Assembly (NCBI GenBank): GCA_035570055.1
Contig: DATMLM010000023.1
Coordinates: 5,876-69,875 of the forward strand
DNA: 64,000 nt
Source of the DNA: Gemmatimonadaceae bacterium
GTDB lineage: Bacteria > Gemmatimonadota > Gemmatimonadetes > Gemmatimonadales > Gemmatimonadaceae
Reading direction: 5' to 3'
Shown here: positions 14,796 through 34,771 of the stretch, one piece after another
How positions within the stretch are numbered: position 1 is the stretch's first letter
How the letters are laid out: each line of letters starts with the position of its first letter
The notes under the pieces: model-generated
What the model saw: only the letters and a program-made list of their open reading frames with translations
Told to the model about the DNA's origin: nothing
The model's database searches: none
Program-made: the position numbers and the translations under genes

Positions 14796-14809
14796 GGTGC
14801 ACACAGTGT

Positions 14810-16750: not shown

Positions 16751-16755
16751 CCCCG

Positions 16756-17103: not shown

Positions 17104-17900
17104 AACGGGATCTCGTACAGGACGCGAAGCGTCTTGAGGTCGGCGTCGCTCAACTGCCACTTCTTGCCGTTCCCGGCGCTCGACATGATGTCGTCCGGGT
17201 TTGGCGAGTGGTCGAGACCGAGGGCATGACCTGCTTCGTGCAGGGCGGCGTTCTGGATACCCTCGATGGGAGCCGTGGACAGCAGCAGCACGTGCGCGAC
17301 GAGGATGCGGCCATCATTGTCGGTGAGCCGAAACGTGGTGCCGAGCTCCCCTTGGAAGGGAAGCGTCTGAGCCCACGTGACGTGTACGTCGGCCGCGGTC
17401 GAGTCGTCGACAATCACGTAGGTCACTGGAGCCTGGGCCTCGTTCCACCGGCGAAACGAGGTCCGCACAACCGACGCGTATGGATGCGCTGCGATCCAGA
17501 CGGCGACCGTATCCTTGTGGTCGGGCCAGCGCGAGATGCTGCCCGCGCCTTCGGCGATCACGCGGCGGATGTAGGTCCCGCCGGCATCCTCATCGAGGAT
17601 GGAGTCGATCCGATCTCTAGACGCTGCCGCCGGCGCGCTGTCGGTGGCGATCTGCTGCTGGGCCGCCAGCCGTAGCCGGTCGAGGTGCAGCTCGCGCAGC
17701 CAGGCCGGTGGCCCCGGATACTGGTTGCCCATGGACTGGACTTGGTTCTCGTACGCCCTGACCACTAACTCGCTGTCCGCGTGCGTCAGCTGCACCAGCG
17801 GGTGCTTCGCCGCCGCGCGCCGGTGGTTCCGTAGCGCCGCCGCGGCCACCACCAGTACGACCATCAGCACGGACACTCGAACGGCCTTCGCGACGGGCAT
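17100..17900 (-). CDS. M10 family zinc metalloprotease (matrixin/metzincin-like)
   Basis: Metzincin motif HEAGHALGLDHS (HExxHxxGxxH). Signal/anchor MPVAKAVRVSVLMVVLVVAAAAL. Confidence 0.75.
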   Translation of the reverse strand: MPVAKAVRVSVLMVVLVVAAAALRNHRRAAAKHPLVQLTHADSELVVRAYENQVQSMGNQYPGPPAWLRELHLDRLRLAAQQQIATDSAPAAASRDRIDSILDEDAGGTYIRRVIAEGAGSISRWPDHKDTVAVWIAAHPYASVVRTSFRRWNEAQAPVTYVIVDDSTAADVHVTWAQTLPFQGELGTTFRLTDNDGRILVAHVLLLSTAPIEGIQNAALHEAGHALGLDHSPNPDDIMSSAGNGKKWQLSDADLKTLRVLYEIPF

Positions 17901-17919
17901 CGTGAGGAGACGCGCGCGC

Positions 17920-17975
17920 GTGGCGCTCAGCAACGTTACTTGTTCAAGTGGCTCCGTAGAAATAACTTACGGGCT
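17920..17975. repeat. copy A of a repeated ~55-bp intergenic element (GTGGCGCTCAGCAACG + TTACTTGTTCAAGTGGCTCCGTAGAAATAACTTACGGGCT)
   Basis: The same element recurs at ~21074-21154 (copy B, upstream of a tRNA-Cys 5' half) and at ~23132-23170 (copy C, upstream of the intact tRNA-Cys). It is probably the tRNA-Cys promoter region. Confidence 0.6.
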
Positions 17976-18674
17976 CTTATGCGCGCCATTCGCTGTCTGC
18001 CGATGCTAGGAATGTTTATCACGGCGTGCAGTCACGACGCGACGGCTCCTCGGCCTTTGCCATCCGCGGCGGCGGTTGCACGCCGGCTCGACAGTCTCTA
18101 CGCACAGGCACTGGCCGCGCAGAATACCGAGGCGTACGACGTGCTTCGGTTTGCGGAGCTCGGCCCGGCATTCGGTGCGGCACCGGTCGCGGTCAGCGTC
18201 ACATACAACGGCAAGCCGGAACCGTGGATTGCGTTCGGCGCGGACCTCGTGGGTCAGGACACCTTGGGCAACAGAACGGACATCTATTTCGTCGTCGCGT
18301 CGCCCGATGCGAGCTTCGACACGATGGTGGTCGCTGAGCAATCTGACGGATTCCCTCCGCCCCCAGCTCAGACGACGGGCTATCTGTCCGTGGGCGGGGG
18401 AGAGGCATTGCCGTGGCCGGGAGTAGGGCCGGTGACAGCGAGCACACAGCAGCTTGGCGGCCCCTGCAACTTGGTCCCCGGTTTGGTTGGCTCCGATGTC
18501 ACCAAGTACAGCACTGATCCTTGTCGGTTGATGCAGATCCAAGCGAGTATGGCGCTGCGAATCGCGACGTTCGACTCCACCGATTCGGTGAGGATGCAAG
18601 TGACGGTGAACGGTGCAAGCCTGACCATCGGGCAGGACGAGGTGAATAGCGGTCAACGCATTTCGTGGCCGTAA
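17940..18674 (+). CDS. hypothetical lipoprotein
   Basis: Lipobox-like MLGMFITAC. Gly/Pro-rich with no recognisable domain. The start could be 17940 or 17979. Confidence 0.5.
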   Translation: MFKWLRRNNLRALMRAIRCLPMLGMFITACSHDATAPRPLPSAAAVARRLDSLYAQALAAQNTEAYDVLRFAELGPAFGAAPVAVSVTYNGKPEPWIAFGADLVGQDTLGNRTDIYFVVASPDASFDTMVVAEQSDGFPPPPAQTTGYLSVGGGEALPWPGVGPVTASTQQLGGPCNLVPGLVGSDVTKYSTDPCRLMQIQASMALRIATFDSTDSVRMQVTVNGASLTIGQDEVNSGQRISWP

Positions 18675-18688
18675 AGGTGCGGCCTACT

Positions 18689-19531
18689 ATGTCACGCCTC
18701 TTCGTGGTGTCGATCATCGCGTGCGGCACACTCGCCGGCGCCGAGGCGTCCGCGCAGGATTGCCACGGTGCGCCAGCGGCCGATTCCCAACTGGCCGCAA
18801 TCAACGCGCAGTTCTCGACGCCCGACGCTCGTGACAGTCTCACCACCGACGCGACTGACTCTCTTGGCGCGGCCATCAAGGCGGTGCTCAGGTTGCCGAG
18901 TCCTGTTCCGATTCCGGTGTGGATGTCAACGCCGGGGCTGGCGATCCCGTACGTCCACGGCGCCTTCGCGTTCACGATCGAGAAAGATGGGAAGGTCGGA
19001 AGCATCAAGGTCGAGCGGTCGACGCTCTCGCGCGGCCTGGACTCCGCGTTTACTAACGCGCTGGCTGCGGTGCCACCACAGATGCTCGGCCGCAAGGTCA
19101 AGCTCACGATGCTCGTGAGCCTCAACACGCACACGTCGCCGCCAGTCATGAGACAGATCACCACGCCGGGCGGCCATACGTACGATGCGGCGCATCCGCC
19201 GCCGGATAGCCTCAAGGTCGTGCCAGGCAAGCACTATGGCCCGCACACGATCAACTTGGATTCGCTCACTGTGCCGGTCTGGCCACAGCTGCCGCCGCCC
19301 AAGCTGGTCCGCCCAGGCACCGCGCCGCGCGGCTATCAGGGCATGGTCAACGCGATGGTCGTGATCGACGAGGAGGGGCGCGTGGCGAGCGTTGACGTCA
19401 TGAGCGCCAAGCAGGCGGACATGCTGGGCCCTACACGCGCGGCGCTCGCCGACATGCGAATGTCGCCGTCCTCCCTCGGCGGGTGCCCGGTGAAATTCGC
19501 GATCGTGGTCCCCGTCGTGTTCGGCGGCTGA
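18689..19531 (+). CDS. secreted protein with TonB C-terminal-like domain(s)
   Basis: Signal MSRLFVVSIIACGTLAGAEASAQD. The C-terminal GYQGMVNAMVVIDEEGRVASVDVMSAKQADMLGPTRAALADMRMSP...CPVKFAIVVPVVF resembles the TonB_C fold. An earlier segment (PVWMSTPGLAIPYVHGAFAFTIEKDGKVGSIKV) looks like a second such unit. Confidence 0.5.
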   Translation: MSRLFVVSIIACGTLAGAEASAQDCHGAPAADSQLAAINAQFSTPDARDSLTTDATDSLGAAIKAVLRLPSPVPIPVWMSTPGLAIPYVHGAFAFTIEKDGKVGSIKVERSTLSRGLDSAFTNALAAVPPQMLGRKVKLTMLVSLNTHTSPPVMRQITTPGGHTYDAAHPPPDSLKVVPGKHYGPHTINLDSLTVPVWPQLPPPKLVRPGTAPRGYQGMVNAMVVIDEEGRVASVDVMSAKQADMLGPTRAALADMRMSPSSLGGCPVKFAIVVPVVFGG

Positions 19532-19802
19532 TCCCGCCTACCGCACACGCAGACAGGCGCTAATCGTGGCTTCGAAGTCAGGTCGCCGCAGCGAGAAATC
19601 CGTGACAACGCGGGCCTCCCAGCCGAAGTAAAGCGCGACGATGGCGGTGAGCGGCCGCGATCACAGCCACGACCGCAAACCAAGCAGTTACTCACTCAGC
19701 CGTCATGTTCGACTGTGCTCCTTGGCGCGCGTACTAGACTGCGACTAGAGACAGCAGCTTGACATTAGCGTATTTTTCTTCAGGTCCCGCCCGGGAGTTT
19801 GC

Positions 19803-20042
19803 ATGCAAGAGAGTACTGCGACCAAGACAAGTGTCATCCACACTGACCCTGAGATCCAAAGCGGCACGCCGGTGTTCGTTGGTACGCGCGTGCCCGCCGC
19901 GTCGCTGTTCGACTGGCTGGAGGGCGGCTCAACGCTCGAGGAGTTCCTAGACAACTTTCCTAGTGTGACGCGCGACCAGGCGATCGCGGCGCTGGAAGAA
20001 GCAAAGGCGAGCGTGGTCGGCGGTGCGCGTCCTGCTCGATGA
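19803..20042 (+). CDS. DUF433 domain protein (antitoxin-like partner of DUF5615)
   Basis: 79 aa. IHTDPEIQSGTPVFVGTRVPAASLFDWLEGGSTLEEFLDNFPSVTRDQAIAALEEA matches the DUF433 consensus (..DPxxxxGxPxxxGTRIPVxxIxxxLxxGxSxEEILxxYPxLTxEDIxAAL). There is a good SD (GGGAG) 7 nt upstream. Confidence 0.7.
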   Translation: MQESTATKTSVIHTDPEIQSGTPVFVGTRVPAASLFDWLEGGSTLEEFLDNFPSVTRDQAIAALEEAKASVVGGARPAR

Positions 20043-20348
20043 GAACTTGCCGCGCCAGCTCGCGCGCGAGCTGGTAGGACACGACACGAAAACTGTCCCA
20101 CAGATGGGTGGGCGTCGCTAAAGAACGGAGCGCTGCTCACCGCCATGGCCCGGGCAGGATTTGACGCCCTGGTCACGATGGACAAAAACCTTCACAAGCA
20201 ACAACGAGTGGCTGATCTCCCGTTCGGCATCGTTCTGATCCGGGCACGGGACAATCAACTTGCGACTCTGTTGCCGCTAGCCCAAGACATGCTGAGCGCG
20301 CTCAAAGAGGTGCGGCAGGGTCAGGTCGTCAGTGTTGGGATCGACTGA
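20023..20348 (+). pseudogene. DUF5615 (PIN-like putative toxin) gene disrupted by a frameshift
   Basis: A GTG start overlaps the DUF433 stop by 20 nt and reads VRVLLDENLPRQLARELVGHDTKTVPQMGGRR*. The rest of the family sequence (...WASLKNGALLTAMARAGFDALVTMDKNLHKQQRVADLPFGIVLIRARDNQLATLLPLAQDMLSALKEVRQGQVVSV) is in the +2 frame. The shift falls in the G-rich run cagatgggtgggcg (~20104-20114). Confidence 0.6.
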
Positions 20349-20488
20349 CCTGCAGGACCGCTTGTGGGCTGCTACTTGCTGCCGGCGAGTCTGTAATCCC
20401 TTCTGCCATAGATGGTTGCTAGCGTCGGCCGTACCCGATAGTTTCCCGAAATGTACGGAGGTACGTGTAAACATCTATGGAGGCTTCT

Positions 20489-20617
20489 GTGTCAATCCCT
20501 CTCCCCATCTGCGACGCTTGCGGTCGGCGGACGGCGACAATCAAGCGGGACAACGTGTGGTACTGCCAGGTCTGCGATAACGGCCCGGGCGTGACGCGTC
20601 TATCTACCGGCCACTAG
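20489..20617 (+). CDS. possible small zinc-ribbon protein (42-46 aa, CxxC-x15-CxxC)
   Basis: It lies below the ORF-track size cutoff. Translation: (MEAS)VSIPLPICDACGRRTATIKRDNVWYCQVCDNGPGVTRLSTGH. GGAGG sits 5 nt upstream of the GTG at 20489. An alternative ATG is at 20477. Confidence 0.3.
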   Translation: MSIPLPICDACGRRTATIKRDNVWYCQVCDNGPGVTRLSTGH

Positions 20618-20898
20618 CGACAGCCGCCGTAGAAGCCGTCGCCTTGATAGCTCACAGCGCGGATCGTGTCCTGCTGCGTCGTGAGCGCCACCTTGCATGT
20701 GACGTTGCCGCCGCGCGTGACCTGGCGCCAGACCATGACCTTGCGTCCGTCGCTGAGATCGAACGCATCTCGGGGAGCACCCCACTTCTCGATCGCGACG
20801 TCGATGGGCTGGCCCTTCCAGCTCTCCATCTCACGGCGAAAGCCTCCGCTGCTGGCGCACGCTGCGACCAGCACGACCAGTCCTACCGCGACGCGCAT
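20614..20898 (-). CDS. small hypothetical lipoprotein
   Basis: MRVAVGLVVLVAACASSG (lipobox VAAC) + 75 aa. The longer annotated ORF up to 21087 runs through the repeat element and is unlikely to be translated. Confidence 0.45.
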   Translation of the reverse strand: MRVAVGLVVLVAACASSGGFRREMESWKGQPIDVAIEKWGAPRDAFDLSDGRKVMVWRQVTRGGNVTCKVALTTQQDTIRAVSYQGDGFYGGCR

Positions 20899-21073
20899 TC
20901 GCTCCTCAGCGATGGTTTGACAAGGGACGCGAACTCGGGTGTTGTGGCAACCTTTTTTGGCTGCAACCCTTTCGGTGGGTGCGACAGTACACCGGGGCTT
21001 AGCCACCGGACGTCTCGACGAGCCCACATGAACTCGCCGGGTCGGCGAATCCGGGCTAGGCGAAGTGCAACTC

Positions 21074-21154
21074 GTGGCGCTCAGCAACGCCGAGGCCCAC
21101 CGTTCCGTCGTCGCGTTACTTGGTCAAGTCGCTCAGTAAGAATAGCTCACGGGC
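21074..21154. repeat. copy B of the repeated intergenic element (GTGGCGCTCAGCAACG, a 26-bp insertion, TTACTTGGTCAAGTCGCTCAGTAAGAATAGCTCACGGGCT)
   Basis: The left arm is shared with copy A. The right arm plus GTTTCTG plus the tRNA 5' half is shared with copy C. Confidence 0.6.
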
Positions 21155-21161
21155 TGTTTCT

Positions 21162-21198
21162 GGCGCGGTAGCCAAGTGGTAAGGCAGCGGTCTGCAAA
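21162..21198 (+). other. truncated tRNA-Cys 5' half (37 nt; acceptor stem, D arm and anticodon stem/loop up to position 37), i.e. an att-site remnant
   Basis: GGCGCGGTAGCCAAGTGGTAAGGCAGCGGTCTGCAAA is identical to nt 1-37 of the intact tRNA-Cys at 23178. The sequence diverges immediately after the anticodon loop (TGGCTAGC instead of ACCGCTAT). Confidence 0.75.
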
Positions 21199-21353
21199 TG
21201 GCTAGCTCGAACAGGTGCCAGAGTGCACCTGAGTGCTAAGTAGGAATTCGAGTAGGCTTAGGGAGAGGGCGGTTTCCCACGGTGTCTGATGGGAGCCGCC
21301 ATGTTTCTCTCAGGGTGCCACCAATACTGCCACCGGCTCATGGAGCGCAGGCT

Positions 21354-21758
21354 ATGGCGAATGACGCGCGCATTGAGGCTCTCGTAGACGCGCAGCTCGC
21401 CCTCATCGAGGATCCTGAACGCAGGAATGCACTGGCGCGGCTGCTCGTGCCACCTCGTCACGAGGAGCGCGAATGGGACTACGGTGCCGAGGGAGAGCGC
21501 TACCCGTACTGGGTTGTTGCGGAGGCGCCCGATCGCGGCGTGATACTCGTGTATTGCGAGCACGGATTTGGTCCCGACGAGCCTTGGGGCTTCTTGTTCA
21601 CGGATGAGCCGGACTTCACGTCGCTCGGCATGGATAGTCAATGGGGCTGGTACTTGGAGGAGGCGTTCGTGCGGTCCGGCCTGTGGAAGGGCCAGACCAG
21701 CATCAGCGACGCCTTTCACAAGTCACCAGAACAGCGTTTCGGCTCGCACAAGACCTGA
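21354..21758 (+). CDS. hypothetical protein (possible immunity-like small protein) in the tRNA-flanked islet
   Basis: ~134 aa from MANDARIEALVDAQLALIEDPERRNALARLL... to ...SQWGWYLEEAFVRSGLW. No recognisable domain. The ORF could start at 21282. Confidence 0.4.
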   Translation: MANDARIEALVDAQLALIEDPERRNALARLLVPPRHEEREWDYGAEGERYPYWVVAEAPDRGVILVYCEHGFGPDEPWGFLFTDEPDFTSLGMDSQWGWYLEEAFVRSGLWKGQTSISDAFHKSPEQRFGSHKT

Positions 21759-21952
21759 GGCTCGCGAGCAGCGGACTGAAAACGCGAACTCGGTCGCGAA
21801 GTCCACGTAGCTGCCAAATTGCTTGCCTGGGCCCAGTTAGCGGAAAGGGCGATTTCTCACGGTGTACGCGAGAAGTCGCCCTTTCTTGTTATGTCTGCCC
21901 ACGGAATTGCCCTCGTTCGATAGATCGGGCATCGTCGACACGACGCGCCCCG

Positions 21953-22879
21953 TCACAGAGAATTGCCCTCAGCCGCAGTGCGGAAAGCGACGCCAGCGCG
22001 TCGTCGTGGAATTTCTCGCGCAACCAGGTTCCACCCGCGCCAGTCGTATACCGTTTGAGGCGTCGTGAACCGTGGAGTCGTCGGCCATATCAGAGACAAA
22101 TCGTACTGCTGAGCAAAGGCGTCCCCCATCGTTTGACGAGCATCTCCGACATTGTCGGGCATGCTAATCGTAAGCATGAACAGCTTGCCCATAACAAACC
22201 CAGTCGCCTGTCGGCAGACCCCACCGTTAAAGCGGGGGTCGACTATATCCCCGGGTTCATTCCACCCAACGTGGTTCATGACGCCCGACTGCACATCCGA
22301 GTATTTGCCAATCCAGACCGACCATGTCGGTGGCGCTTCCATTTTGTTGACGAACTCGAGGCGTTCCTCCTTCGAAGTCGCCTGTGTTGGAGGATGGGCA
22401 GTTTCCCGTACCATCGTGTTCATCGCGGCCCAGGTAGCCACAAGGTGTTGGCCCCGTTCGTCGAGCTGTGGCCAGTTCCCTAAAACCATCGACCGGAGAT
22501 ATTTCTTCGCTCGCTCTTGAAGGGCACTCATGCGGACGTTGTTGCAGTGTGCACAGAGCACTCGCAGTGCTTGCGAGTGGGGGTCGCCTGGACGATCGAG
22601 TTTTCCTCGGCTGAACTGGTATGGACCTAATGTGCCCGTTGAGATAGCAATGCCACGGATACTGACGGAATGACTAGTGTTCGTGAACCAGAGGCCGACA
22701 TACCGCCGCAACCAGCGCGGGTTGAGGTGCTCCTTGGTTAGCCGTCCCGCCTTTCCGCAAAACAGGCACTCATTGCGACTCGCTGACATCGCCGATCGCG
22801 AATCAGAACGCTTCAAGGCAAGTCCTCCCTCGACGGGCGCCGGCGTTGGAAACGTGAGCGGCGCGAATACGACCGACAC
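21953..22879 (-). CDS. HNH endonuclease domain protein (HNH_5-like N-terminus plus a domain of unknown function)
   Basis: CLFCGKAGRLTKEHLNPRWL .... VLCAHCNNVRMS gives CxxC...EH...CxxCN, as in HNH_5 nucleases. The probable start is the Met at 22789 (MSASRNECLFCGK). Local GC is ~55%. Confidence 0.55.
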   Translation of the reverse strand: MSVVFAPLTFPTPAPVEGGLALKRSDSRSAMSASRNECLFCGKAGRLTKEHLNPRWLRRYVGLWFTNTSHSVSIRGIAISTGTLGPYQFSRGKLDRPGDPHSQALRVLCAHCNNVRMSALQERAKKYLRSMVLGNWPQLDERGQHLVATWAAMNTMVRETAHPPTQATSKEERLEFVNKMEAPPTWSVWIGKYSDVQSGVMNHVGWNEPGDIVDPRFNGGVCRQATGFVMGKLFMLTISMPDNVGDARQTMGDAFAQQYDLSLIWPTTPRFTTPQTVYDWRGWNLVAREIPRRRAGVAFRTAAEGNSL

Positions 22880-23131
22880 CTGAAGCTTTCTAAGTTGGGT
22901 TCCCGCGTGCTGGCGAGTCGCTGAGAACAGCGGTCACGATACCCAGCATGCCGGGGGTTGGAACTGCTCAAACCTGCTCGCGTCGTCAATGCGAGTATCC
23001 GAGGGATCGGGGCAAGGCTAGAACAGCAGCCCGGGCGGAGACTGCGCGGGCAAGTATCAGGTTGGCTTAACGATGAGTGCCACCAATTTTGCCACCACTC
23101 GTCAGTACGAGAGTGTCACGCCGGTCCCGGC

Positions 23132-23170
23132 CGACTTGTTCAAGTCGCTCGCTCGAAATAGCTTACGGGC
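23132..23170. repeat. copy C of the repeated element (GACTTGTTCAAGTCGCTCGCTCGAAATAGCTTACGGGCT), immediately upstream of the intact tRNA-Cys
   Basis: ~90% identical to copies A and B over 39 nt. It is followed by the same GTTTCTG spacer as copy B. Confidence 0.6.
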
Positions 23171-23177
23171 TGTTTCT

Positions 23178-23249
23178 GGCGCGGTAGCCAAGTGGTAAGG
23201 CAGCGGTCTGCAAAACCGCTATTCGCCGGTTCGATTCCGGCCCGCGCCT
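23178..23249 (+). tRNA. tRNA-Cys (anticodon GCA)
   Basis: GGCGCGGTAGCCAAGTGGTAAGGCAGCGGTCTGCAAAACCGCTATTCGCCGGTTCGATTCCGGCCCGCGCCT. It has a 7-bp acceptor stem (GGCGCGG/CCGCGCC), an anticodon stem GCGGT/ACCGC with loop CTGCAAA (U33, G34 C35 A36, A37), a T-arm GGTTCGATTCC, and no encoded CCA. Confidence 0.85.
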
Positions 23250-23311
23250 CTCGACAACGAATGCAGACCCATACGAAGAGCACGGTGCGCGTTCTTCCTA
23301 GAGTCGACCGA

Positions 23312-23908
23312 TCAATGCCTCAACGGGTCCACTCGGTCAGCGTACGCCTCGGCCCAGGCAATCCAATCTGTGGTGGATAGACCTGGCGGAACGATTGGCA
23401 GCGGGCCGGCCGCATTTGCGACGTGATTTTCGCCGTCCGTGCTGGGGTCACGCCCGAGTTGCTTGCTAAGTTCGGCAATATAGCAACGAATCAGCCGGGA
23501 AAGTTGCCATGAATTGGCCTGCCGTTCGATCTCCTTAGCGAGGGCCGCTTCCCGAACCTGGATTCGTTGGGTTTCCGCAGCGCGGTTGGCGGCTTCGCGC
23601 TCCCGCTCGAGCTTTTGCTGCCAGTCCGCGATGACACGTCGGTACTCTGTCGCAGCGTCGACGATGCCGCCTATCACGGCGTCGAGTTGTTGCTCAAGCA
23701 AATCGCCCTGTTTCCCAGGTCGTGGATCGGACCAGATCCGGAATGTGCCCCACCCGCCCACATGATGCGGTATGGAGAGCGCGAGCCTGCCAGACGGGAT
23801 CACTTCGCGTACGCCATCGAGCGAACTCATCGAACGCCGCTGTTGTCCACGTAAGTGGGCTTCCGGCGCCGGTGTGGTTGGTTTGACCTGTTTGCGCAAC
23901 TCGCGCAT
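23312..23908 (-). CDS. hypothetical protein with a central coiled coil (second gene of a two-gene operon beside tRNA-Cys)
   Basis: 198 aa with a coiled-coil segment QQKLEREREAANRAAETQRIQVREAALAKEIERQAN. No known domain. Confidence 0.4.
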   Translation of the reverse strand: MRELRKQVKPTTPAPEAHLRGQQRRSMSSLDGVREVIPSGRLALSIPHHVGGWGTFRIWSDPRPGKQGDLLEQQLDAVIGGIVDAATEYRRVIADWQQKLEREREAANRAAETQRIQVREAALAKEIERQANSWQLSRLIRCYIAELSKQLGRDPSTDGENHVANAAGPLPIVPPGLSTTDWIAWAEAYADRVDPLRH

Positions 23909-23975
23909 CGTGAGAAGAACATCTTGATCGTCGACGTTGACACATGTGACATAGCCGTGCCATTGGGAAGGCCAC

Positions 23976-24284
23976 CTACGTCATCGGCTCAAGCTGGCCG
24001 CGCGAGTTCATCCGTGGCCGCGGCATCCGGCTCTCGACGCGATATCCTCGGTCCTCGAGCACTTTAAAAAGGGCATCGAGTATTCGGAGCGCCCGATCTC
24101 GCGTTTTGTCGGAGACCCTGAGATCGGGGTATAACGTCTCCGCTTGTCCGGTCGCGGCATGTTTTCGTCGAGACTTGACGAGAGTCACGAGAGGATGCCA
24201 CGGCTTAGCGTCATCGATATTCGCGGCAACGGCGATCGCTCCCAGACCCATCGACTCGCGTCGGGATTGAGTGGTTTTGGGCAT
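23976..24284 (-). CDS. hypothetical protein (first gene of the same two-gene operon)
   Basis: 102 aa, 67 nt upstream of the 198-aa gene on the same strand. The in-frame ORF after its stop (23694..23975) is GC-noise. Confidence 0.35.
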   Translation of the reverse strand: MPKTTQSRRESMGLGAIAVAANIDDAKPWHPLVTLVKSRRKHAATGQAETLYPDLRVSDKTRDRALRILDALFKVLEDRGYRVESRMPRPRMNSRGQLEPMT

Positions 24285-24371
24285 AGCTGTAACAATATAT
24301 AGGCACGCGAGTCAACGCTCATGAACATCGGCACCTCAACGACAGTGTTGTTCTCACCGGAGTGACGTTGG

Positions 24372-25529
24372 ATGGCAATCACATCACACCGACTGGTCGG
24401 AATTCTGGAGTTCCGGACGCTGCTAACAAATGAGCTCCACCTACGAGAACACTATGACGCGTTGTTAGCCGACTTCGCGGCAATCCCGACCGGCATGCCG
24501 ATATGGGGCCCCGCCATGTACGGCTCCTTCTCCGCGACCTCGCATTTGCGGTGGCGGTTTCAACGCTCCAATGGATCGGATGACCGGCTAGTGCAAAGCC
24601 TCTGTAGGCGCGCATTCCGTCGGCCACTGACCGAGGCGGTGTTCGTTCTGGATACGGTCTTCGTACCGGATAGCGAGACAATGGCGGAGCTTTCTCCCGA
24701 AATTGGCGAAGGCGGTCTTATCTCACTGGCGGCGAGTATGCTCGCCGATACGCTGCGGAGTCTCGTCTACGCCGCCAACATTGCTCGTCCGGCAACGCTG
24801 ACATCAGTCAGTGTTGCCGTTGCGATGGGAGACGGACGGCAGATGTTCGAGCGACACGATCTAATCGGTGACTTCGGGGCGGTCCGAGAGTACGCCACTC
24901 GGACTGGATGGCCCATCTTCGACGAGTTACCTATCCTCGATGTCTGGGTATGGACCTTGAAGAACTTCCTACCAACCCGTTGCGGCGATAGCCCGCTCTC
25001 CCGTGCATTCAACGCACACACGTACCTGTATGGTGTGGAAATTCCGACTCCCCTCAAGATGTTAGCCGCCCTGATCGGGGTGGAGGCGCTGTTTGGGGGT
25101 GGCTCGACCAATCAACTCATCGAGCGCGTTCACCTATTGCTGGGTCCGTCCAAGGACTTTAGGCGTGACCTCCGACGCATGTACGAAATCAGAAGTGCCG
25201 TTGTGCACGGATCAGCGGGATTTCCTCCACACTTATTCCCATATGCTGACCCCCCTGCATACGCCGGGCGCCGACGAGAGACTGACAAGGCGGCCGACGT
25301 TGGCTCAGCGATTTTGCTTGCCGCGCTTCAACGTTGCGCCAAGGTTGGCGCTAGCCGTCTCGAATACGAGGAGCACCTGACTCATCACACGGAGGACTAC
25401 GATCAGGAGCGCTCGGACGAGATAGGGACGAATTTTGTGCGCTACAGACTATCGGATGTCCAGGCCTACGAGACGGGCGTAAGGCGCGCCATGCGGCAAC
25501 GGTCACGGAAGACCGCGTCGCGAGGTTGA
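24372..25529 (+). CDS. HEPN domain protein (Apea-like / abortive-infection-like)
   Basis: 385 aa. The C-terminal block NQLIERVHLLLGPSKDFRRDLRRMYEIRSAVVHGS contains the HEPN R-x4-H motif (RSAVVH) in Apea-like context. The N-terminal ~250 aa are uncharacterised. It is divergent from the two-gene operon. Confidence 0.55.
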   Translation: MAITSHRLVGILEFRTLLTNELHLREHYDALLADFAAIPTGMPIWGPAMYGSFSATSHLRWRFQRSNGSDDRLVQSLCRRAFRRPLTEAVFVLDTVFVPDSETMAELSPEIGEGGLISLAASMLADTLRSLVYAANIARPATLTSVSVAVAMGDGRQMFERHDLIGDFGAVREYATRTGWPIFDELPILDVWVWTLKNFLPTRCGDSPLSRAFNAHTYLYGVEIPTPLKMLAALIGVEALFGGGSTNQLIERVHLLLGPSKDFRRDLRRMYEIRSAVVHGSAGFPPHLFPYADPPAYAGRRRETDKAADVGSAILLAALQRCAKVGASRLEYEEHLTHHTEDYDQERSDEIGTNFVRYRLSDVQAYETGVRRAMRQRSRKTASRG

Positions 25530-25547
25530 TCTCGACGCTCGTGAGCC

Positions 25548-25823
25548 TCAACGGGGTTGGTCCTTGTCGAGGCCCGCCGCTGCGGTCGCAAGGAATTGGT
25601 TGATCGACGTGCCATGCCGTTCGGCGAGCGCCGTTATGCGCTCGACGTCGGTATCGACAGGCGGATTCCCCGAGAATCTGTCGCGCGATCTTTTGCATTC
25701 GGGTAGAGTTTCACTGGGTGTAGCGCGTAGGATGTCATGAGACCCGGTCCGGCGCACCAGAGTTGATCGTGTGCCCATCGTCGCTACGTTCGATGACCAA
25801 GTGGCCGGCGTTCGAATGCACAC
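25548..25823 (-). CDS. small protein with a C-terminal ribbon-helix-helix/HicB-like antitoxin segment
   Basis: VERITALAERHGTSINQFLATAAAG resembles RHH antitoxin C-termini (..LAEREGVSLNQLIxTALA). A GTG start is at 25823. A shorter product could begin at MGTRST (25778). Confidence 0.35.
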   Translation of the reverse strand: MCIRTPATWSSNVATMGTRSTLVRRTGSHDILRATPSETLPECKRSRDRFSGNPPVDTDVERITALAERHGTSINQFLATAAAGLDKDQPR

Positions 25824-26153
25824 GAATGCCGAGTCCAGAAAGAACGAGCGCCCACTCTTCGGGTTATTGGCTTCGGCCGGCGCTAAAGTTTCTCGGCTGA
25901 GTCAAGCATTCGGCAGAGCAAATCTGAAAGGCGATCCCAGGGACCTGGCCAGCCAATATCTGGGTATGAAAACGGCTGCTAGTCTTCTTCTCCGACGCTT
26001 TGACTGGACTTTTCCTCTGAGTTGGCAGACGCATCCCGATTGATCAGCGAGGATGCAGTCGTCGTCTCCTTGAAAACCCAATCCGGTACGAGCGCCGCCG
26101 CCCTTTGCACCATAGTCCAAATGGATTGGAGATGGAGGGCTGAGCCAAGAGCC

Positions 26154-27746
26154 TCACCGCTTTGCGGCATCAATTACCTCCCTAATCTTGTCGAGATCGC
26201 GAGCGGCCAATGATTCACGGACCAAGTAGTCGAACGGCGAGAAAGGAACGCGTAGACCGATCCCCTCCTTCTTCGTCGCACCCTTGTCGTCTTTTGCTTC
26301 AAGTCTTTTACCCAAGACACTAAGCCTTCCAAAAAATTCTGTGAATCGGCTTGGTGCGATTCCGAAGAAGGTGTCAAACGCGACTCGATCATCTTGGTCC
26401 GAAGCTGGTCCTTCTTCACTTGTCACTCTGATACTGTCCTTGTGCATCTCCGGGGCCAAACTCTTCGGATACGGCTCAATGTACACTACTCGGCGAATGC
26501 CCGCTGCGACGATGTGTTTCGCGCATCCATGACATGGGAAAGTTGTAGAAAAGAGCGTTGCTCCTCTGACGGAGACACCGACCCGAGCAGCCGACGAGAG
26601 AGCTTCCATCTCCGCGTGAACAGCGCGCGTGAACTCCGTCAGGCTCGCGATTCGGGTCTCTTTTAGTCTCTCAACCGCGACCTCTGTCAGCCGAGCTTGT
26701 TGTGTTTGATCCATTCCACCCCAATCGGGGAGAAAGACTTCCAGCATTTCAGCCACGATTTTGTGCTTCATCCTATCGCTCTCGTCATACCCGATGACAA
26801 TATCGCGAGCGTCGCGAGGCGTTCCGTCCGGATGAGGCTCATCGCCCCAATACAAACCGCCAGGCCAGCACGGCACCTCATTTGTCCCTAGCGCCAGGGT
26901 CTCGCTAAATTCGCTGACAATCGAGGCGCCCACTTGGCGAGCCAAGGATGAAGAGCGTAGGCTAGCCGCGTAGGCGAGAAACATTCCATGTTCGTCTCGT
27001 GTCGGAGTCTCTAGCTTCGTTCCAAAGACGAGGTTCAGAAAGCGTTCAATCTGACGATTCGTACGATCTTCTTCCTGCGCACTTTCGACTGCAAAAAACG
27101 CATCAGCGAGATGGAACGTGTCGTTAACCCGCTGGCCGTGCTTCACTGCTTCGTCGGCATCACGATCTATGAGTTGGTCGGCTTGCTCGCCACTCATTCC
27201 GAACGCTTTCAGATTAGCACGGCGCGTCGGCTTCGGAGCAGCCACACCTAACAAGAGAAAATTCCTGCCGTAAATGCTGCGCAGGCGAAATGCTTCCTCC
27301 GGGTGCTTGAGCTGGTCAACAACGAACACAACCTTCGAAAGGTGCCGTGGCTCGGACGCTGGGCGCTCCGCACTCATCTGCGCTGCAGCGAAGAGTGCCA
27401 AAATATCGTTGCGGTACGAATCACCACGAAGCTTTGTTCCCAAGGTCATCAACGTGTCGTACCGTTCGAAATTGGGCAGCGAGAAGATCCCCCCTGACCC
27501 GGCTGCGTAGGCTGCTAGTCTGCTCAGTTTAATCGCTACAACGCCGTACTCACGTTTCTTCAAGGCTTGAGTCAAGAGCGCTACGAAATGCGGGATTGGA
27601 GTACCTATCGGCGAAACGAGCCCGATCACCAGCTCCGGCTGTGTCGGGTAGAAAACAGTATCCAAAGACGCTATCGACGGCTTTGTTTCCTGCGCTGGAG
27701 ACGACTCGCGCTTCACCTTGGGTCTCTTGCGACGGCGTCTCTGCAC
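26154..27746 (-). CDS. AvcD-like antiphage deaminase: N-terminal degenerate P-loop NTPase-like domain plus a C-terminal dCMP/dCTP deaminase (cytidine deaminase-fold zinc) domain
   Basis: 530 aa. Zinc motif VHAEMEAL(x27)PCHGCAKHIVAAGIRRVVYIEPYPKS, i.e. HAE...PCxxCAKxIxxAGI as in dCMP deaminases. The catalytic Glu is at residue 379. There is a degenerate Walker-A-like GLVSPIGT at residues 42-49. Local GC is ~52-55%. Size and domain order match the AvcD / defensive dCTP deaminase family. Confidence 0.65.
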   Translation of the reverse strand: MQRRRRKRPKVKRESSPAQETKPSIASLDTVFYPTQPELVIGLVSPIGTPIPHFVALLTQALKKREYGVVAIKLSRLAAYAAGSGGIFSLPNFERYDTLMTLGTKLRGDSYRNDILALFAAAQMSAERPASEPRHLSKVVFVVDQLKHPEEAFRLRSIYGRNFLLLGVAAPKPTRRANLKAFGMSGEQADQLIDRDADEAVKHGQRVNDTFHLADAFFAVESAQEEDRTNRQIERFLNLVFGTKLETPTRDEHGMFLAYAASLRSSSLARQVGASIVSEFSETLALGTNEVPCWPGGLYWGDEPHPDGTPRDARDIVIGYDESDRMKHKIVAEMLEVFLPDWGGMDQTQQARLTEVAVERLKETRIASLTEFTRAVHAEMEALSSAARVGVSVRGATLFSTTFPCHGCAKHIVAAGIRRVVYIEPYPKSLAPEMHKDSIRVTSEEGPASDQDDRVAFDTFFGIAPSRFTEFFGRLSVLGKRLEAKDDKGATKKEGIGLRVPFSPFDYLVRESLAARDLDKIREVIDAAKR

Positions 27747-27781
27747 CGTGCCTCAGAATCGGCAGGAAGGAAAGAAGACAA

Positions 27782-27834
27782 ACGGACGGGACAATTCTGC
27801 CGTGTCGACCGCAAATACGAAAGCCCCCGTCCGT
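27782..27834. promoter_or_regulatory. perfect 9-bp inverted repeat ACGGACGGG-(35 nt)-CCCGTCCGT, 36 bp upstream of the AvcD-like start, inside a 650-bp noncoding leader
   Basis: Seen directly in the sequence. It is not followed by a U-tract on either strand, so it is not an intrinsic terminator. Confidence 0.4.
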
Positions 27835-28394
27835 CCCTCGCAGTATCCGGGTGCACGCATAGGGAAAATGGCCTATGCGATCTGTAAATGCGCAGTCGCG
27901 TCGGCTCCACTACATCGGGTATGACACTAGTTGTGGACGGTTCGATGATGCTACGAACGGAACGACCTAGAGGTGCTACGAAGGGTTTTTCCAAACAGAG
28001 CGTCTTCATGCGCCTATAGCTATCCGGTGCCGTCAGCCGAGCGTCAGCGGCCGAGCCGCTGAATTGTGCCGGCCTTTAGATCACCACACCGCCGGTCACT
28101 CTGCAACTGGGGCATTTCTCGGGTAGAAGGTCACTCCCTACGAATATGCTAGCGCCCGAGGAGCAAGCACCACAGCCTCGAGCTCACGTACGACAATAGC
28201 CGCGCCAAGCGCGCCGGCTTCTACATCGATCCCGGCAGTGCCAGCGGTGACGTCACCTCGTTCTGGTTCAACGAGTATCGGTTCATTCGCGTGCCCTGAT
28301 TATCGGACGCAATGGTCGAGTGCGCTCGCGATTTGTGTGTCTTTATTTTTCCGTCCATGCTTAGGAGAACGAAAACGACCGAGGAGAACTACCA

Positions 28395-28886
28395 ATGGAC
28401 GCCCCGAAAACGATCCAGCTCTTTCCCAAAGACGACGACGCGAACGTCGAACCCGGCGAGCTCGCCCACTTGAGCGCGCTCACGGATTACCAGATCGAGG
28501 ACCCGGCTCCGGACATTCGCGGATGGACGGTCAAGCTTCGCGATGGCCAGACCGTGGGGAAAGTCGACGACCTGGTCGTCGATACCGACAACCTGGTCGT
28601 GAGGTACTTCGAGATGAAAGTCGCGCGTGAGTTTCGCCGCGGCGATGACGAGGAGTGGATGCTCATCCCGATCAGCGTGGCCCACCTGGACGATGCCGAC
28701 GACGTCGTTATGATCCATCGGCTGCCGTCGACGATCGCGAAAGCGCGGCGCTCGCGGATCGGCAAGGAGCCGCTGCGGACTCCCACGGACGCCGAGGCAC
28801 TCGCCGTGACCGCCGCATTCGAGCCGCTCGATGAGGGGCCCATCATCGATGCGGTCGAGGACGATCGCCCGTTCACGGGTAACTGA
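28395..28886 (+). CDS. PRC-barrel domain protein
   Basis: IEDPAPDIRGWTVKLRDGQTVGKVDDLVVDTDNLVVRYFEM fits the PRC-barrel pattern. GC returns to ~68% here, which marks the island boundary. Confidence 0.65.
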   Translation: MDAPKTIQLFPKDDDANVEPGELAHLSALTDYQIEDPAPDIRGWTVKLRDGQTVGKVDDLVVDTDNLVVRYFEMKVAREFRRGDDEEWMLIPISVAHLDDADDVVMIHRLPSTIAKARRSRIGKEPLRTPTDAEALAVTAAFEPLDEGPIIDAVEDDRPFTGN

Positions 28887-28945
28887 GCTATGATTACGGC
28901 CATGAGACTCGCGCTCATGGCCGTTGCGCTTGGCGGGGTTCTCCA

Positions 28946-30172
28946 TTGAATCTCCAGAGGAGGCTGCTGCCCTTCCTCCTCACGCTCTACGTCGTCGCGT
29001 TCATCGACCGCATCAATCTCGGCTTCGCGGCGCTCACGATGAACGCCGAGCTGGGGCTCACCAAGCAACAGTTCGGGTTCGCGGCCGGGATTTTCTTCCT
29101 CGGATACTTTCTGTTCGAGGTTCCCAGTAACCTCATCCTGCACAAGATCGGCGCGCGGGTGTGGATGGCGAGGATCCTGCTCACGTGGGGCGTGATCGCC
29201 ACGCTGACCGGGTTCGTGCAGTCCGCTTCGCAACTCTACTGGGCGCGGTTTGCGCTCGGACTCGCTGAAGCCGGCTATTTCCCCGGGATCGTGCACTATC
29301 TCGGGTATTGGTTTCGGCAACGAGAGAAAGCACGGGCGACGGCGATCATCCTGATGGGGATCCCGCTGGCGAGCATCCTCGGGGCGCCGGTGTCAGGGGT
29401 GATTCTCGATCATGTGCACTGGCTGGGGCTCAGCAGCTGGCGCTGGCTCTTCATTCTCGAAGGATTCCCGGCTGTCATCGGCGCGTTTTTGGCCGGGAAA
29501 TTCCTCCCCAGTCGACCCGCGGATGCTGCGTTTCTCACCGTGGCTCAACGGGCCGACATCGCTGAGTCGGTGAGCCAAGAGGATCGCGCGAAAGTGGCCG
29601 CGGCGGTCCCGACGTGGATCTCGATTCTCCGCGTGTCGCAGCTCAGCCTCATGGGATTTTGCCACGCCTTTGGTCAGTACACGTTCAACTTCTGGCTGCC
29701 ACAGATCTTCAAGTCCGCGTTCGCCGGCGTCTCGAACACAACTGTTGGGCTCCTGGTGATGGTGCCCAATTTGTTGGGTCTCGGCGTGATGATCGCGGTA
29801 TGCCAGCACTCCGACCGCACGCTCGAGCGCCGCTATCACATGGCACTGTCGATCGCGCTCGGCGGCCTCGCGTTGGTGCTGCTCGGTGCGCCACGCTGGC
29901 CGGCCGAGACACTGGCCCTATTCTCCCTCGTCGCGATCGGAGCGTACAGCTTCTTGCCGATCTTCTTCACCGTGCCCGGAGCCTTTCTCTCCGGCTACGC
30001 GGCGGCCGCCGCCATAGCGGTTATTGCCTCGGTGTCGAACATCGGCGGATTCGCGGGACCGTACATCACGGGCGTCATGCAGCAACGCGGTTTGGCGGTC
30101 GCCGGCGTTCTCTATCTGGTCGCAGCCGCCTTGTCGTTGGCGCTCCCGCGCGCCTTGCGAACGATGGCCTGA
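28946..30172 (+). CDS. MFS transporter (anion:cation symporter-like)
   Basis: 408 aa and 12 TM. The motif LYVVAFIDRINLGFAALTM is typical of the ACS family of MFS transporters. Confidence 0.8.
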   Translation: MNLQRRLLPFLLTLYVVAFIDRINLGFAALTMNAELGLTKQQFGFAAGIFFLGYFLFEVPSNLILHKIGARVWMARILLTWGVIATLTGFVQSASQLYWARFALGLAEAGYFPGIVHYLGYWFRQREKARATAIILMGIPLASILGAPVSGVILDHVHWLGLSSWRWLFILEGFPAVIGAFLAGKFLPSRPADAAFLTVAQRADIAESVSQEDRAKVAAAVPTWISILRVSQLSLMGFCHAFGQYTFNFWLPQIFKSAFAGVSNTTVGLLVMVPNLLGLGVMIAVCQHSDRTLERRYHMALSIALGGLALVLLGAPRWPAETLALFSLVAIGAYSFLPIFFTVPGAFLSGYAAAAAIAVIASVSNIGGFAGPYITGVMQQRGLAVAGVLYLVAAALSLALPRALRTMA

Positions 30173-30819
30173 ATCTGCGCGAGCGCGTCGTTCCGCGTCT
30201 GGTCGACGGGTGTGTGCAGCCAGCGCGCGACATCGGTCCACGCACGCGTCAGCCCGTCGTCCTGGTGATGCCGGAGCCGCCGGCGGCGATACTTGTCGAC
30301 CCACAACAGCGCCCGGCCCAATGCCGGCGGCCCGGACCAGCGCAAGCGGTGATCGTAGCCGTCATCCTGCCGCTGGATATCCACCAACTCGGCGCCCGGA
30401 AGCGAGAGGAGTAACGAGCGGAGATCGTGGGAAACCGGCGAGCGCGGCGGTCCGTCGATCCGAAACGTGGCCTTGTGCTCGACGTTGAACTGCGACGGCC
30501 AGAATCCCTGCTCGTAGAGTGCCTCGTCGGGCACGATGACAATGAGATGACCGCCGGGCCGGACGAGACTCCACCACTGCGCCACCGCCTGTCGCGGGTC
30601 GTTCATGTGCTCGAGACAATGGGAGCTGTGCACGCAGTCGAACTCGGCCCCTGCCAGGTATCGCGCAATCTCGTTCGCGTCGCCGTGCTCGCGGTCGAAC
30701 GGTTGCGCGTGCGGCACGACCGGATCCGGTCCCGAGCCGATATCGAGCACGGTGCCCGCGAAGTAGCGCGCACGAAACGCTTCGTCGCGCACCCGGTTGG
30801 TCTTACTCGCTTCTTTCAC
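30112..30819 (-). CDS. class I SAM-dependent methyltransferase
   Basis: VLDIGSGPD (motif I) ... FDCVHSSHCLEHMNDP ... LVRPGGHLIVIVP. It overlaps the 3' end of the MFS gene convergently by ~60 nt. Confidence 0.65.
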   Translation of the reverse strand: MKEASKTNRVRDEAFRARYFAGTVLDIGSGPDPVVPHAQPFDREHGDANEIARYLAGAEFDCVHSSHCLEHMNDPRQAVAQWWSLVRPGGHLIVIVPDEALYEQGFWPSQFNVEHKATFRIDGPPRSPVSHDLRSLLLSLPGAELVDIQRQDDGYDHRLRWSGPPALGRALLWVDKYRRRRLRHHQDDGLTRAWTDVARWLHTPVDQTRNDALAQIQAIVRKARGSANDKAAATR

Positions 30820-31745
30820 GGCGTGAGCGTACCCGCGTAGGCGGCCGCCGCGATCATGTCGGCCAAGGTCAGCGTCGTCGCGACCGCTCGCATCGGCGCG
30901 CCAGCGGCTGACGACCGCGTGCCCGTGTTGAAGGCCAGCAGCTGTCGCAGAAGGTAGGATGGTGACCGGCCCGCGAGCGGTGGCACGAGCGCGACGCCGC
31001 GGAGATCCGGGCCATGGCAGCTCGAACAGACCGTCCCCGCGAGCGTCTGTCCATGTGCAATGCTGCCGGGGGGCACGTAAGTGGTGTAGGCGACATACGG
31101 ATCATGACGCTCGTGCCGCTCGGCGTCCTCGGGGATTTCGATCAGTCGCTGGCCGAGTGGCTCGACCCCGCCATCAGGCGAGCGAAAGTACAGGCCGCGG
31201 CCGGTGACTGTCTTCGGGACCTCGGTGGCCTCGACCACCCGCCCGCGTTGTCGCGGCTTGACCGTCGCGAAATAGCGCGCGGCCTGTGCGACTTCGTCGG
31301 GCGTCGTCGCGCGGGCGATGTCCGCCATGCGCGCGGCCGGCACCGCGTTGATATTCGTGCCGAGCGATGCGCCCTTTCGCGCACCCGACCTCATGTCCGA
31401 CATCTGGGCGACGATATAGGAGGCCGAGAGACCCGAGAGCATCGCGTTCTCGGGTCGGCCAGCGCCGTCGGCCAGGTGGCAGTAGCCGCAAGCAAGAACG
31501 GACGGCTTCCGGCCTCGCGCGACGACGTCCGGCATCGGCGGATGGGCATCGGGAAACCAGTCCATCACGAAGAACGGATAGTTGGCCTGTGCTTCGGTGA
31601 ACGCTGCGTGGCTTCCCGGTATGTGCAGTGGCGTGATCGTGTCGACGACGCCAGGCGGGCCGCCTGGGGCTGCCGGGCTAACGGGGAACGCCCACGCCGG
31701 GACCTGCATCTGCACCAGCACGATGAGGAGCGCGACGTGTGTCAT
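30816..31745 (-). CDS. di-heme c-type cytochrome
   Basis: Two CxxCH motifs (CGYCH, CSSCH). Signal MTHVALLIVLVQMQVPAWA. Confidence 0.65.
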   Translation of the reverse strand: MTHVALLIVLVQMQVPAWAFPVSPAAPGGPPGVVDTITPLHIPGSHAAFTEAQANYPFFVMDWFPDAHPPMPDVVARGRKPSVLACGYCHLADGAGRPENAMLSGLSASYIVAQMSDMRSGARKGASLGTNINAVPAARMADIARATTPDEVAQAARYFATVKPRQRGRVVEATEVPKTVTGRGLYFRSPDGGVEPLGQRLIEIPEDAERHERHDPYVAYTTYVPPGSIAHGQTLAGTVCSSCHGPDLRGVALVPPLAGRSPSYLLRQLLAFNTGTRSSAAGAPMRAVATTLTLADMIAAAAYAGTLTP

Positions 31746-33630: not shown

Positions 33631-33658
33631 ATGTCAAATGTGATCGTATGATCACATT

Positions 33659-34750: not shown

Positions 34751-34771
34751 GCTTCATTATATTGGCGTTCG

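Follow-up and report, generated by a model that had tools for sequence, protein, structure and literature searches.

The DNA between a peptidase gene and a PRC-barrel gene in a 64,000-nt stretch of a Gemmatimonadaceae genome (assembly GCA_035570055.1, contig DATMLM010000023.1, positions 5,876 to 69,875; hereafter the window) is a patchwork of intact genes, broken genes and fragments on both sides of a gene for tRNA-Cys(GCA). This is the single tRNA gene in the window (ARAGORN; Rfam tRNA, 70.8 bits), and three copies of its upstream region (R0, R1 and R2) are found at or to the left of it. Between R1 and R2 lie two arms of an integrative element, which enclose a conserved gene (orf134) and a gene for a probable HNH-type nuclease (HNH308). 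On the other side of the tRNA, a 3' segment (23251-28163) holds a frameshifted gene, a gene for a HEPN-like protein (p385), a small open reading frame (ORF; p91) and a gene for an AvcD-type anti-phage dCTP deaminase (AvcD). The features are collected in Table 1. Very probably they make up a composite and largely dead island, produced by repeated site-specific integration at tRNA-Cys, that works today only through its surviving cargo.

Table 1. Features of the tRNA-Cys region, in window coordinates; labels beginning with L denote loci in other assemblies
Feature	Coordinates	Strand	Evidence and remarks
Peptidase M10-like gene	17100-17933	-	Pfam Peptidase_M10 4.4e-11
R0, oldest remnant of the promoter-containing tRNA-Cys upstream region	17934-17975	+	Stops about 8 nt short of the tRNA start position
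Older insert common to the window and L004 only	17940-19531	+	Lipoprotein-like ORF 17940-18674; TonB_C-domain protein 18665-19531
DUF433 gene	19803-20042	+	Pfam DUF433 1e-16
Frameshifted DUF5615/PIN-like gene	20024-20348	+	Repaired protein: DUF5615 9.2e-7; PIN_10 6e-3
46-aa CxxC...CxxC mini-ORF	20477-20617	+	Zinc-ribbon matches sub-threshold only (0.018)
94-aa lipoprotein-like gene	20614-20898	-	phrog_3716 6.7e-12
R1, displaced native upstream region with tRNA-Cys 5' half (21162-21198)	21073-21198	+	attL-side junction
Left arm of the 5'-side element family	21199-21336	+	78-86% identity to seven relatives
orf134, conserved gene at element left end	21354-21758	+	tblastn 73-89% in L073 (beside left arm), 77% in L074
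Second, partial left-arm copy	21835-21912	+	blastn L076 2082-2160, 80%; inverted repeat I5
HNH308, single-gene cargo	21953-22879	-	phrog_38451 2.9e-9; PHROG 5956 'HNH endonuclease' 1.5e-3 (weak)
Right arm of the element	22990-23133	+	94% identical to L073 5693-5956; also matches L062, L071
R2, element-supplied upstream region (23134-23177) with intact tRNA-Cys(GCA) (23178-23250)	23134-23250	+	ARAGORN, Rfam, copy alignment
Frameshifted gene listed as 102-aa (23976-24284) and 198-aa (23312-23908) ORFs	23312-24284	-	Unnamed family, 310-441 aa
p385 (385 aa), intact	24372-25529	+	N-terminal alpha/beta region; C-terminal HEPN-like helical domain
p91 (91-aa ORF)	25548-25823	-	Pfam HicB E = 0.046, sub-threshold
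AvcD-type anti-phage dCTP deaminase, intact	26154-27746	-	Lowest GC in the window
Last 46 codons of a 176-aa gene that L004 has in full	28159-28296	+	tblastn 85% over residues 131-176
PRC-barrel gene, conserved right neighbour	28395-28886	+	Pfam PRC 4.2e-8; 73-96% identity in L067, L004, L062

The G+C (GC) content of 500-nt windows is 0.65-0.67 at 16-19.5 kb and 0.66-0.69 beyond 30 kb; from about 19.5 to 28.5 kb it is 0.53-0.62, the lowest value (0.526) being that of 26.0-26.5 kb. In 2-kb windows across the 64 kb the island reaches down to 0.549 and every other part is at or above 0.616, so that the mean GC of the island is 0.585 as against 0.657 for the remaining window. Tetranucleotide distances to the whole window are 0.28-0.37 within the island and at most 0.25 outside, and the low-GC patch is the sole strong compositional outlier of the 64 kb. 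The GC content of third codon positions (GC3) varies from piece to piece: it is 0.81-0.85 in the peptidase, TonB-like (0.83), PRC, MFS and methyltransferase genes and 0.82 in the 94-aa lipoprotein gene, 0.75 in orf134, 0.70 in the DUF433 gene, 0.63-0.65 in HNH308, p385, p91 and the 198-aa and 102-aa ORFs (p198 and p102), and 0.58 in AvcD. The initial annotation of this DNA had described an island at 19540-28394 in which GC drops in patches to 52-62% between two core genes of 68% GC. The patchy drop is borne out by all of these measures, but GC is 0.663 in the TonB-like flanking gene and 0.640 in the PRC gene, and the bounds have to be moved. The left boundary of the variable zone lies at about 17976, and on the right the foreign DNA ends at 28163/28164, homology to L004, the nearest genome found, resuming at 28164.

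The relatives used for comparison are L004, a Gemmatimonadales metagenome-assembled genome (MAG) of about 90% nucleotide identity, and 18 loci that a metagenome scan with the tRNA-Cys upstream region and 5' half as query returned. By blastn, window positions 13927-19533 align with L004 1-5593 (89.6% identity), 23113-23251 with L004 5600-5737 (95%) and 28164-40141 with L004 9228-21170 (91%). Whether close relatives share the gene order was checked, as the initial annotation had proposed: L004 lacks window positions 19534-23112, so that some 70 nt separate its TonB-like gene from tRNA-Cys, and in place of window positions 23252-28163 it has 3.5 kb of other sequence from the tRNA to the PRC gene. 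The peptidase gene is 85-97% identical (tblastn) in L004, L063, L067-L070, L074 and L076, where the tRNA upstream region adjoins the start of the gene, and it is the true conserved left neighbour of tRNA-Cys in this lineage. In most relatives the tRNA-Cys upstream region comes right after the position that corresponds to 17975 of the window. Because these other relatives join the tRNA upstream region to the start of the peptidase gene, the TonB-like gene (Pfam TonB_C 1.2e-9), formerly taken for a core flank, lies within the variable zone as part of an older insertion shared with L004 only. Orthologues of this segment (80-87% identity) occur in L004 alone, and L069 and L070 give weak matches of 23-24%. 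Among the 18 relatives, the intact tRNA adjoins the peptidase gene in three (L063, L068 and L069), whose 5' site is thus empty, L067 has an intact element of 8.3 kb, and the rest carry other cargo. The interval from the tRNA to the PRC gene is different in every relative, the shortest (about 660 nt, in L062) containing one redoxin gene.

The copies of the upstream region record successive insertions on the 5' side of the tRNA. R1 repeats without any change the first 37 nt of the gene, which reach as far as the anticodon loop's end (0 expected by chance), so that the tRNA-Cys 5'-half remnant and the intact tRNA-Cys reported in the initial annotation both hold. The remnant is part of an 81-nt direct repeat (21118-21198 and 23134-23214, 91% identical) that includes about 45 nt upstream of the tRNA. 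R1 stops with the last nucleotide of the anticodon loop, and its upstream part corresponds to the native flank of L067, L076, L069 and L061. R0 can be aligned with L068 and L063, whose loci are uninterrupted, as far as ...TTACGGGCT, and diverges after it; by blastn, window positions 17938-17978 match L060 872-912. The 3' part of tRNA-Cys occurs only once, no displaced 3' fragment being found in the window with up to 3-4 mismatches allowed, and the 5' half has no exact match among viral contigs that would offer a candidate phage attP. Two ORF starts are affected by these copies. The N-terminus of a 244-aa ORF (LFKWLRRNNLRAL; 17940-18010) is a translation of R0, and the first six codons (MLSATS, 21070-21087) of the ORF listed at 20614-21087 stem from a duplicated start of the peptidase gene; both listed starts (17940 and 21087) are by-products of rearrangement. 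A scan for consensus promoters and terminators performed no better than on shuffled sequences.

The origin of the DNA between R1 and R2 is indicated by the relatives. In L067 a 5'-half remnant and the intact tRNA are 8.3 kb apart and enclose an XRE regulator, an ImmA/IrrE peptidase, an HNH endonuclease, a 504-aa AvcD homologue and, beside the tRNA, a 420-aa tyrosine integrase (Phage_integrase, 5e-24). Integrases of this type (88-91% identity) lie directly upstream of tRNA-Cys in L064, L066 and L077, with a truncated copy in L073, and pairs of remnant and tRNA like that of the window occur in L062, L067 and L073. No integrase coding sequence was found in the window by a domain scan of its ORFs, nor at 15-31 kb with the integrase of the related element, in agreement with the initial annotation. 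Both arms are recognizable nonetheless: in L061, L062, L067, L070, L073, L074 and L076 the 5'-half remnant leads into a left arm of some 135 nt, and the right arm corresponds in L073 to the non-coding DNA that separates the integrase gene from the tRNA. Just inside both element ends (21315-21334 and 23077-23096) is a repeat identical at 18 of 20 positions, GTGCCACCAAnnnTGCCACC, with the motif GTGCC(A/C)AC-N5-8-GCC(A/C)AC. In L064, L066, L067 and L077 repeats of this type are seen close to the integrase or the right end, and in L070 and L076 within the left arm; it may be guessed that they are arm-type integrase binding sites. The unit 21199-23133 is a relic, of about 2 kb, of the L067-type family, with both arms, orf134 and HNH308 present and the integrase deleted. 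The left arm also contains, at 21260-21312, a conserved hairpin, rich in G+C and some 50 nt long, with TTTCTC after it, which is present in L061, L062, L067, L070, L074 and L076 as well; it might stop transcripts that come from the displaced tRNA upstream region, or bind a protein, and no claim for an RNA is made because covariation is almost nil.

The two genes of this unit may differ in origin. The second, partial copy of the left arm between them suggests that orf134 and HNH308 come from two distinct relics that have been fused. The product of orf134 has no match in Pfam, NCBIfam, PADLOC or the sequences of the Protein Data Bank (PDB). HNH308 likewise has no match in Pfam, NCBIfam or PADLOC, and a search of PDB sequences gave nothing meaningful; its motifs C40xxC43, E50-H51 and C109xxC112-N113 (CxxC...EH and CxxCNN) are kept in 7 homologues, with a spacing unusually long for the CxxC...H...N...CxxC beta-beta-alpha metal finger. 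The earlier designation as an HNH nuclease is a weak call, which draws on motifs read by eye and, among models, on the single weak PHROG match and no curated one; the protein is probably an HNH-type nuclease with a C-terminal domain of no known type. Relatives of HNH308 at 67% identity adjoin ParE/antitoxin or PIN_3 toxin-antitoxin pairs, and the loci of HNH308 and its homologues have the coding part alone in common. In L078 (JGI Ga0373476_0000864) the surroundings of a 30%-identical relative are a mobile region that contains ParB_N, DUF4145, resolvase and DUF2971 genes and one for a large integrase.

In the 3' segment, the AvcD identity is confirmed by PADLOC (dCTPase, 5.5e-146), by the NCBIfam equivalog NF041025 (423.4 bits, cut-off 400; positions 1-432 of the 437 in the model) and by Pfam (dCMP_cyt_deam_1, 4.8e-14), with HAE and PCxxC motifs in the translation (...AVHAEMEAL...FPCHGCAKH...), and the deaminase call of the initial annotation is upheld. 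The supposed two-gene operon at 23312-24284, by contrast, is a single frameshifted gene, since homologues of 310-441 aa span 93-99% of the joined 102-aa and 198-aa ORFs and the block absent between the two, WP..TCV.V.DQDVLL, is encoded in the third reading frame. This gene has no Pfam match, and its repaired protein gave nothing meaningful against PDB sequences. Both this pair of ORFs and the pair orf134-HNH308 had been proposed as candidates for novel defence functions; the former is a pseudogene and the latter probably comes from two different relics. The ribbon-helix-helix protein of the initial annotation is p91, which in the sub-threshold match shows a weak C-terminal likeness to the terminal ribbon-helix-helix of HicB antitoxins, and which may be a remnant. 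A stretch of 81 nt within it (25574-25654) is 75% identical to L004 6607-6685, in the otherwise unrelated island of L004, and may be a small antitoxin-like remnant that the two share.

The remaining gene of the segment, p385, belongs to a sizeable family that lies outside curated models. An exhaustive search found at least 570 representative clusters at 50% identity, whereas a word-indexed search returned only p385 itself. In an alignment of 60 sequences E238, R274 and H279 are invariant and S275 nearly so (GLEAL...RSxxVHG), and the R-x4-6-H motif of HEPN domains is present as Rx4H (R274...H279). The AlphaFold model has a pLDDT of 91.6. There was no Pfam match to p385 at E <= 0.1 save the irrelevant PSD5, and 0 of the 60 family members matched Pfam at E <= 0.01; neither p385 nor the 60 aligned members matched a PADLOC model, tblastn against plasmid and phage records gave no match, and a search of PDB sequences yielded nothing meaningful. 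It is likely, from the predicted fold and the Rx4H motif, that p385 is HEPN-like with a probable RNase domain. The initial annotation's more specific label, Apea-like, is not retained because no Pfam HEPN_Apea match is found in p385 or its 60 relatives, the Apea assignment thus having no support from profile models.

Left of R1 lie several small genes. The frame of the DUF5615 gene breaks near 20106-20112, as read from the sequence, and only the repaired protein matches the model; an independent JGI assembly calls the identical truncated product of 67 aa. The DUF433 and DUF5615 genes are adjacent and overlapping (19803-20348) and absent from L004. Of the toxin-antitoxin-like pair given in the initial annotation, the DUF433 half stands as proposed and the DUF5615 half is recognized after repair; because this partner is frameshifted, the two are probably a decayed putative toxin-antitoxin pair that is non-functional. 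The mini-ORF and the 94-aa lipoprotein-like gene that follow are both absent from L004.

The cargo at the same site in the relatives consists largely of defence genes. AvcD homologues are carried by L061, L062 and L067, and as they are just 40-45% identical to the window copy they are independent acquisitions. L067 has its HNH and XRE/ImmA genes besides AvcD, L073 a Mrr_cat-nSTAND3 NTPase, L074 a RelA_SpoT protein, L070 an FRG protein and L063, on the 3' side, an HD-domain phosphohydrolase. The 5'-side element of L066 contains DarT with a macro-domain (DarG-like) partner (oriented positions 1306-2887). This locus also has a second tyrosine integrase (oriented 5906-7261), 36% identical to the first and on the opposite strand just after the tRNA, and two integrase families thus use the two sides of one tRNA. 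L004 has a small 3'-side island of its own (5737-8100), with an uncharacterised 214-aa protein and an AAA_14/DUF4143 ATPase; this island is closed by a second copy, 37 nt long, of the 3' end of the tRNA and contains no integrase. With a site that is empty, occupied by an intact element or otherwise filled, and cargo that is largely defensive, the relatives agree with the initial description of the locus as a graveyard of decayed integrative elements or a defence hotspot. It is acquired DNA and a real yet fairly ordinary hotspot of this kind.

Two neighbouring features of the window were also considered. A milder GC dip (0.62) with strong GC skew at 41859-45101 coincides with a 1080-aa ORF for a TonB-dependent-receptor-like outer-membrane protein; it is not island-like, and the low-GC stretch at 42-45 kb was rejected as a second, unrelated candidate island. 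The MFS transporter gene beside the island (28946-30172; Pfam MFS 1.6e-39) has a GC of 0.63, below the local norm, and a native-like GC3 of 0.81. Its best genome matches are a Gemmatimonadales MAG at 92% and then, all at 61-69% identity, Acidobacteriota, which hints that the gene has been exchanged between phyla.

The comparison shows a family of tyrosine-integrase elements that recombines within the anticodon loop of tRNA-Cys. Each element brings its own upstream region and tRNA 5' half, so that each insertion rebuilds the tRNA and shifts the old copies to the left, and repeated rounds leave the stack of R0, R1 and R2 with the intact tRNA. The youngest unit, between R1 and R2, has kept both arms and lost its integrase. 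The 3' side was replaced separately, and either the arrival of this DNA or its later trimming removed part of the neighbouring gene. Marks of decay in the window comprise two frameshifted genes, one truncated gene, the deleted integrase and the fragments of the tRNA and its upstream region. AvcD, p385 and HNH308 would be intact cargo and are probably functional: AvcD would deaminate dCTP/dCMP once phage infection shuts off host transcription and so starve phage DNA synthesis, p385 would probably act as a stand-alone HEPN-type RNase that causes abortive infection, and HNH308 would probably be a nuclease, whereas the DUF433/DUF5615 pair and the gene at 23312-24284 would be inactivated by their frameshifts.

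Other explanations of the locus have to be weighed against this one. Ancestral core DNA, lowered in GC by weak expression or relaxed selection and not acquired, would fit the near-native GC3 of the TonB-like and lipoprotein genes inside the zone and the presence of the TonB-like gene and its neighbour in L004; however, the gap in L004 at 19534-23112, its unrelated DNA opposite the 3' segment, the three empty 5' sites and the tRNA or upstream-region fragments and element arms that flank the pieces make such an origin hardly credible. The 2-kb unit (21118-23214) could for its part have been a local tandem duplication of the tRNA 5' region that later diverged, as its direct repeats are just 2,016 nt apart with no integrase between them. 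But the conserved arms just inside the repeats enclose 3.8-8.3 kb of varied cargo and an integrase in relatives, and the upstream parts of the two repeat copies match different lineage variants, which leaves a duplication barely plausible. A chimera, in which the metagenome assembly linked different strains through their common tRNA sequence, deserves consideration because the window is part of a 175-kb short-read soil-metagenome contig (k141 name) and repeats of 48-81 nt could mislead an assembler. It is nevertheless highly unlikely, since the gene order is repeated elsewhere: an independent JGI contig of 10 kb, which spans AvcD, the tRNA region and the TonB-like gene, has the order of the window, and a Logan contig from another run (L002) extends from the PRC gene by way of AvcD to p198, covering the 3' part at 100% protein identity. 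The analogous pairs of remnant and tRNA in L062, L067 and L073 speak against an artefact as well.

The initial annotation had anchored a single island of about 8.8 kb on tRNA-Cys, and the whole of 19.5-28.4 kb might indeed be one integrative, or still mobile, element, given that GC is lowered throughout and that AvcD is cargo within single 5'-side elements of L061, L062 and L067. Insertion at the tRNA is retained from this proposal; a single element is very unlikely, however, as the tRNA stands in the middle of at least three separate pieces, the three upstream-region copies and the second partial left arm split the 5' part, GC3 varies from 0.58 to 0.83 among the pieces, L004 has one piece and not others, and no integrase, excisionase or transfer genes were found in the window.

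Several points also weigh against repeated integration as set out here. The leftmost segment (17976-21072) does not fit a simple accretion by integrase: R0 has neither the tRNA 5' half nor a left arm, and R1 bears some 45-75 nt of flank that is of the native type but of a different sequence variant, with the first peptidase codons among them. Because of these two peculiarities the segment did not arrive by simple accretion, and one may speculate that a circle was integrated by homologous recombination in the upstream region, which fits the presence of two copies. The 3' segment has neither an attR-type 3' fragment nor an integrase. HNH308 lacks the support of a curated model, and a structure model from 7 sequences reached a pLDDT of 42. 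A Foldseek search of p385 against the PDB and a viral library gave nothing significant, and in three longer contigs sampled its homologues are solitary among housekeeping genes and not in defence islands. Finally, the comparison set consists of metagenome assemblies throughout, and the functions of the cargo are inferred from sequence.

A broader idea, which is tentative and on balance rather doubtful, is that members of the p385 family would act on their own as effectors of defence or stress responses, with a C-terminal HEPN RNase under the control of an N-terminal double alpha/beta sensor, without partner genes and scattered as single-gene insertions, and, secondarily, that the 2-kb unit without an integrase could be mobilised in trans by an L067-type integrase. 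If this were true, such a unit would make the 5' side of tRNA-Cys a working shuttle site for single defence genes. Apart from this idea, the locus is of moderate interest because it offers a recoverable 5'-side integrase system and a HEPN-like family without a curated model. It is a clean example, documented by comparison between genomes, of a tRNA gene that receives defence cargo on both of its sides, from the little-studied soil phylum Gemmatimonadota, with the site empty, filled by an intact element or filled by relics in genomes that are 90-97% identical nearby, and with the less common 5'-side mode represented by an integrase and both arms. Current ideas on defence islands are left unchanged; members and a usable example are added to them, and a sizeable HEPN-like family is flagged.

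The surviving and decayed cargo resembles known defence systems to varying degrees. The DUF433/DUF5615 genes are adjacent and overlapping like the pairs of this kind presumed to be type II toxin-antitoxin systems with a PIN-like toxin, and differ in the frameshift of the DUF5615 partner. The HEPN RNases of abortive infection and toxin systems (the C-terminal domain of AbiA, HEPN/MNT toxins and Csm6) differ from p385 in that the latter has no Pfam HEPN match and no MNT or other partner gene, its N-terminal alpha/beta half has no informative match, and its homologues are solitary. The window AvcD is like the established family (NF041025; PADLOC dCTPase) in its full-length match, its HAE and PCxxC motifs and a nucleotide-binding-like N-terminal region in the model. 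The Vibrio AvcD system has a cognate inhibitory small RNA, AvcI; an Rfam scan of 18-31 kb (E <= 1) returned the tRNA alone, although Rfam may hold no AvcI model.

With respect to the integration itself, the closest likeness is to tyrosine-integrase islands in tRNA genes (tDNA) of the Islander type, among which those with a 5' fragment are a minority class (159 of 3919; PMC4383910). The locus shares with them an intact tDNA with a displaced upstream 5' fragment in direct orientation, a crossover in the anticodon loop, an integrase beside the regenerated tRNA in relatives, and tandem arrays formed by reuse of the site. Absence of the insertion from the same site in relatives, which is among the Islander criteria, was found in L004, L063, L068 and L069. 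The window differs in having no integrase (one is present in L067, L066, L077 and L064) and a unit of just 2,016 bp, and the element here also exchanges some 45 nt upstream of the tRNA, presumably promoter sequence. The window copy is thus a relic of an integrase-made tDNA island and not a complete member. To our knowledge, such 5'-side behaviour has not been described for a Gemmatimonadota host or for this integrase lineage. Remnants of integrative elements that are flanked by att sites and have no recombination module are known as cis-mobilisable elements (CIMEs). The unit 21118-23214 is like these in that it has both att-type junctions and both arms, carries no integrase and stands in tandem with older relics.

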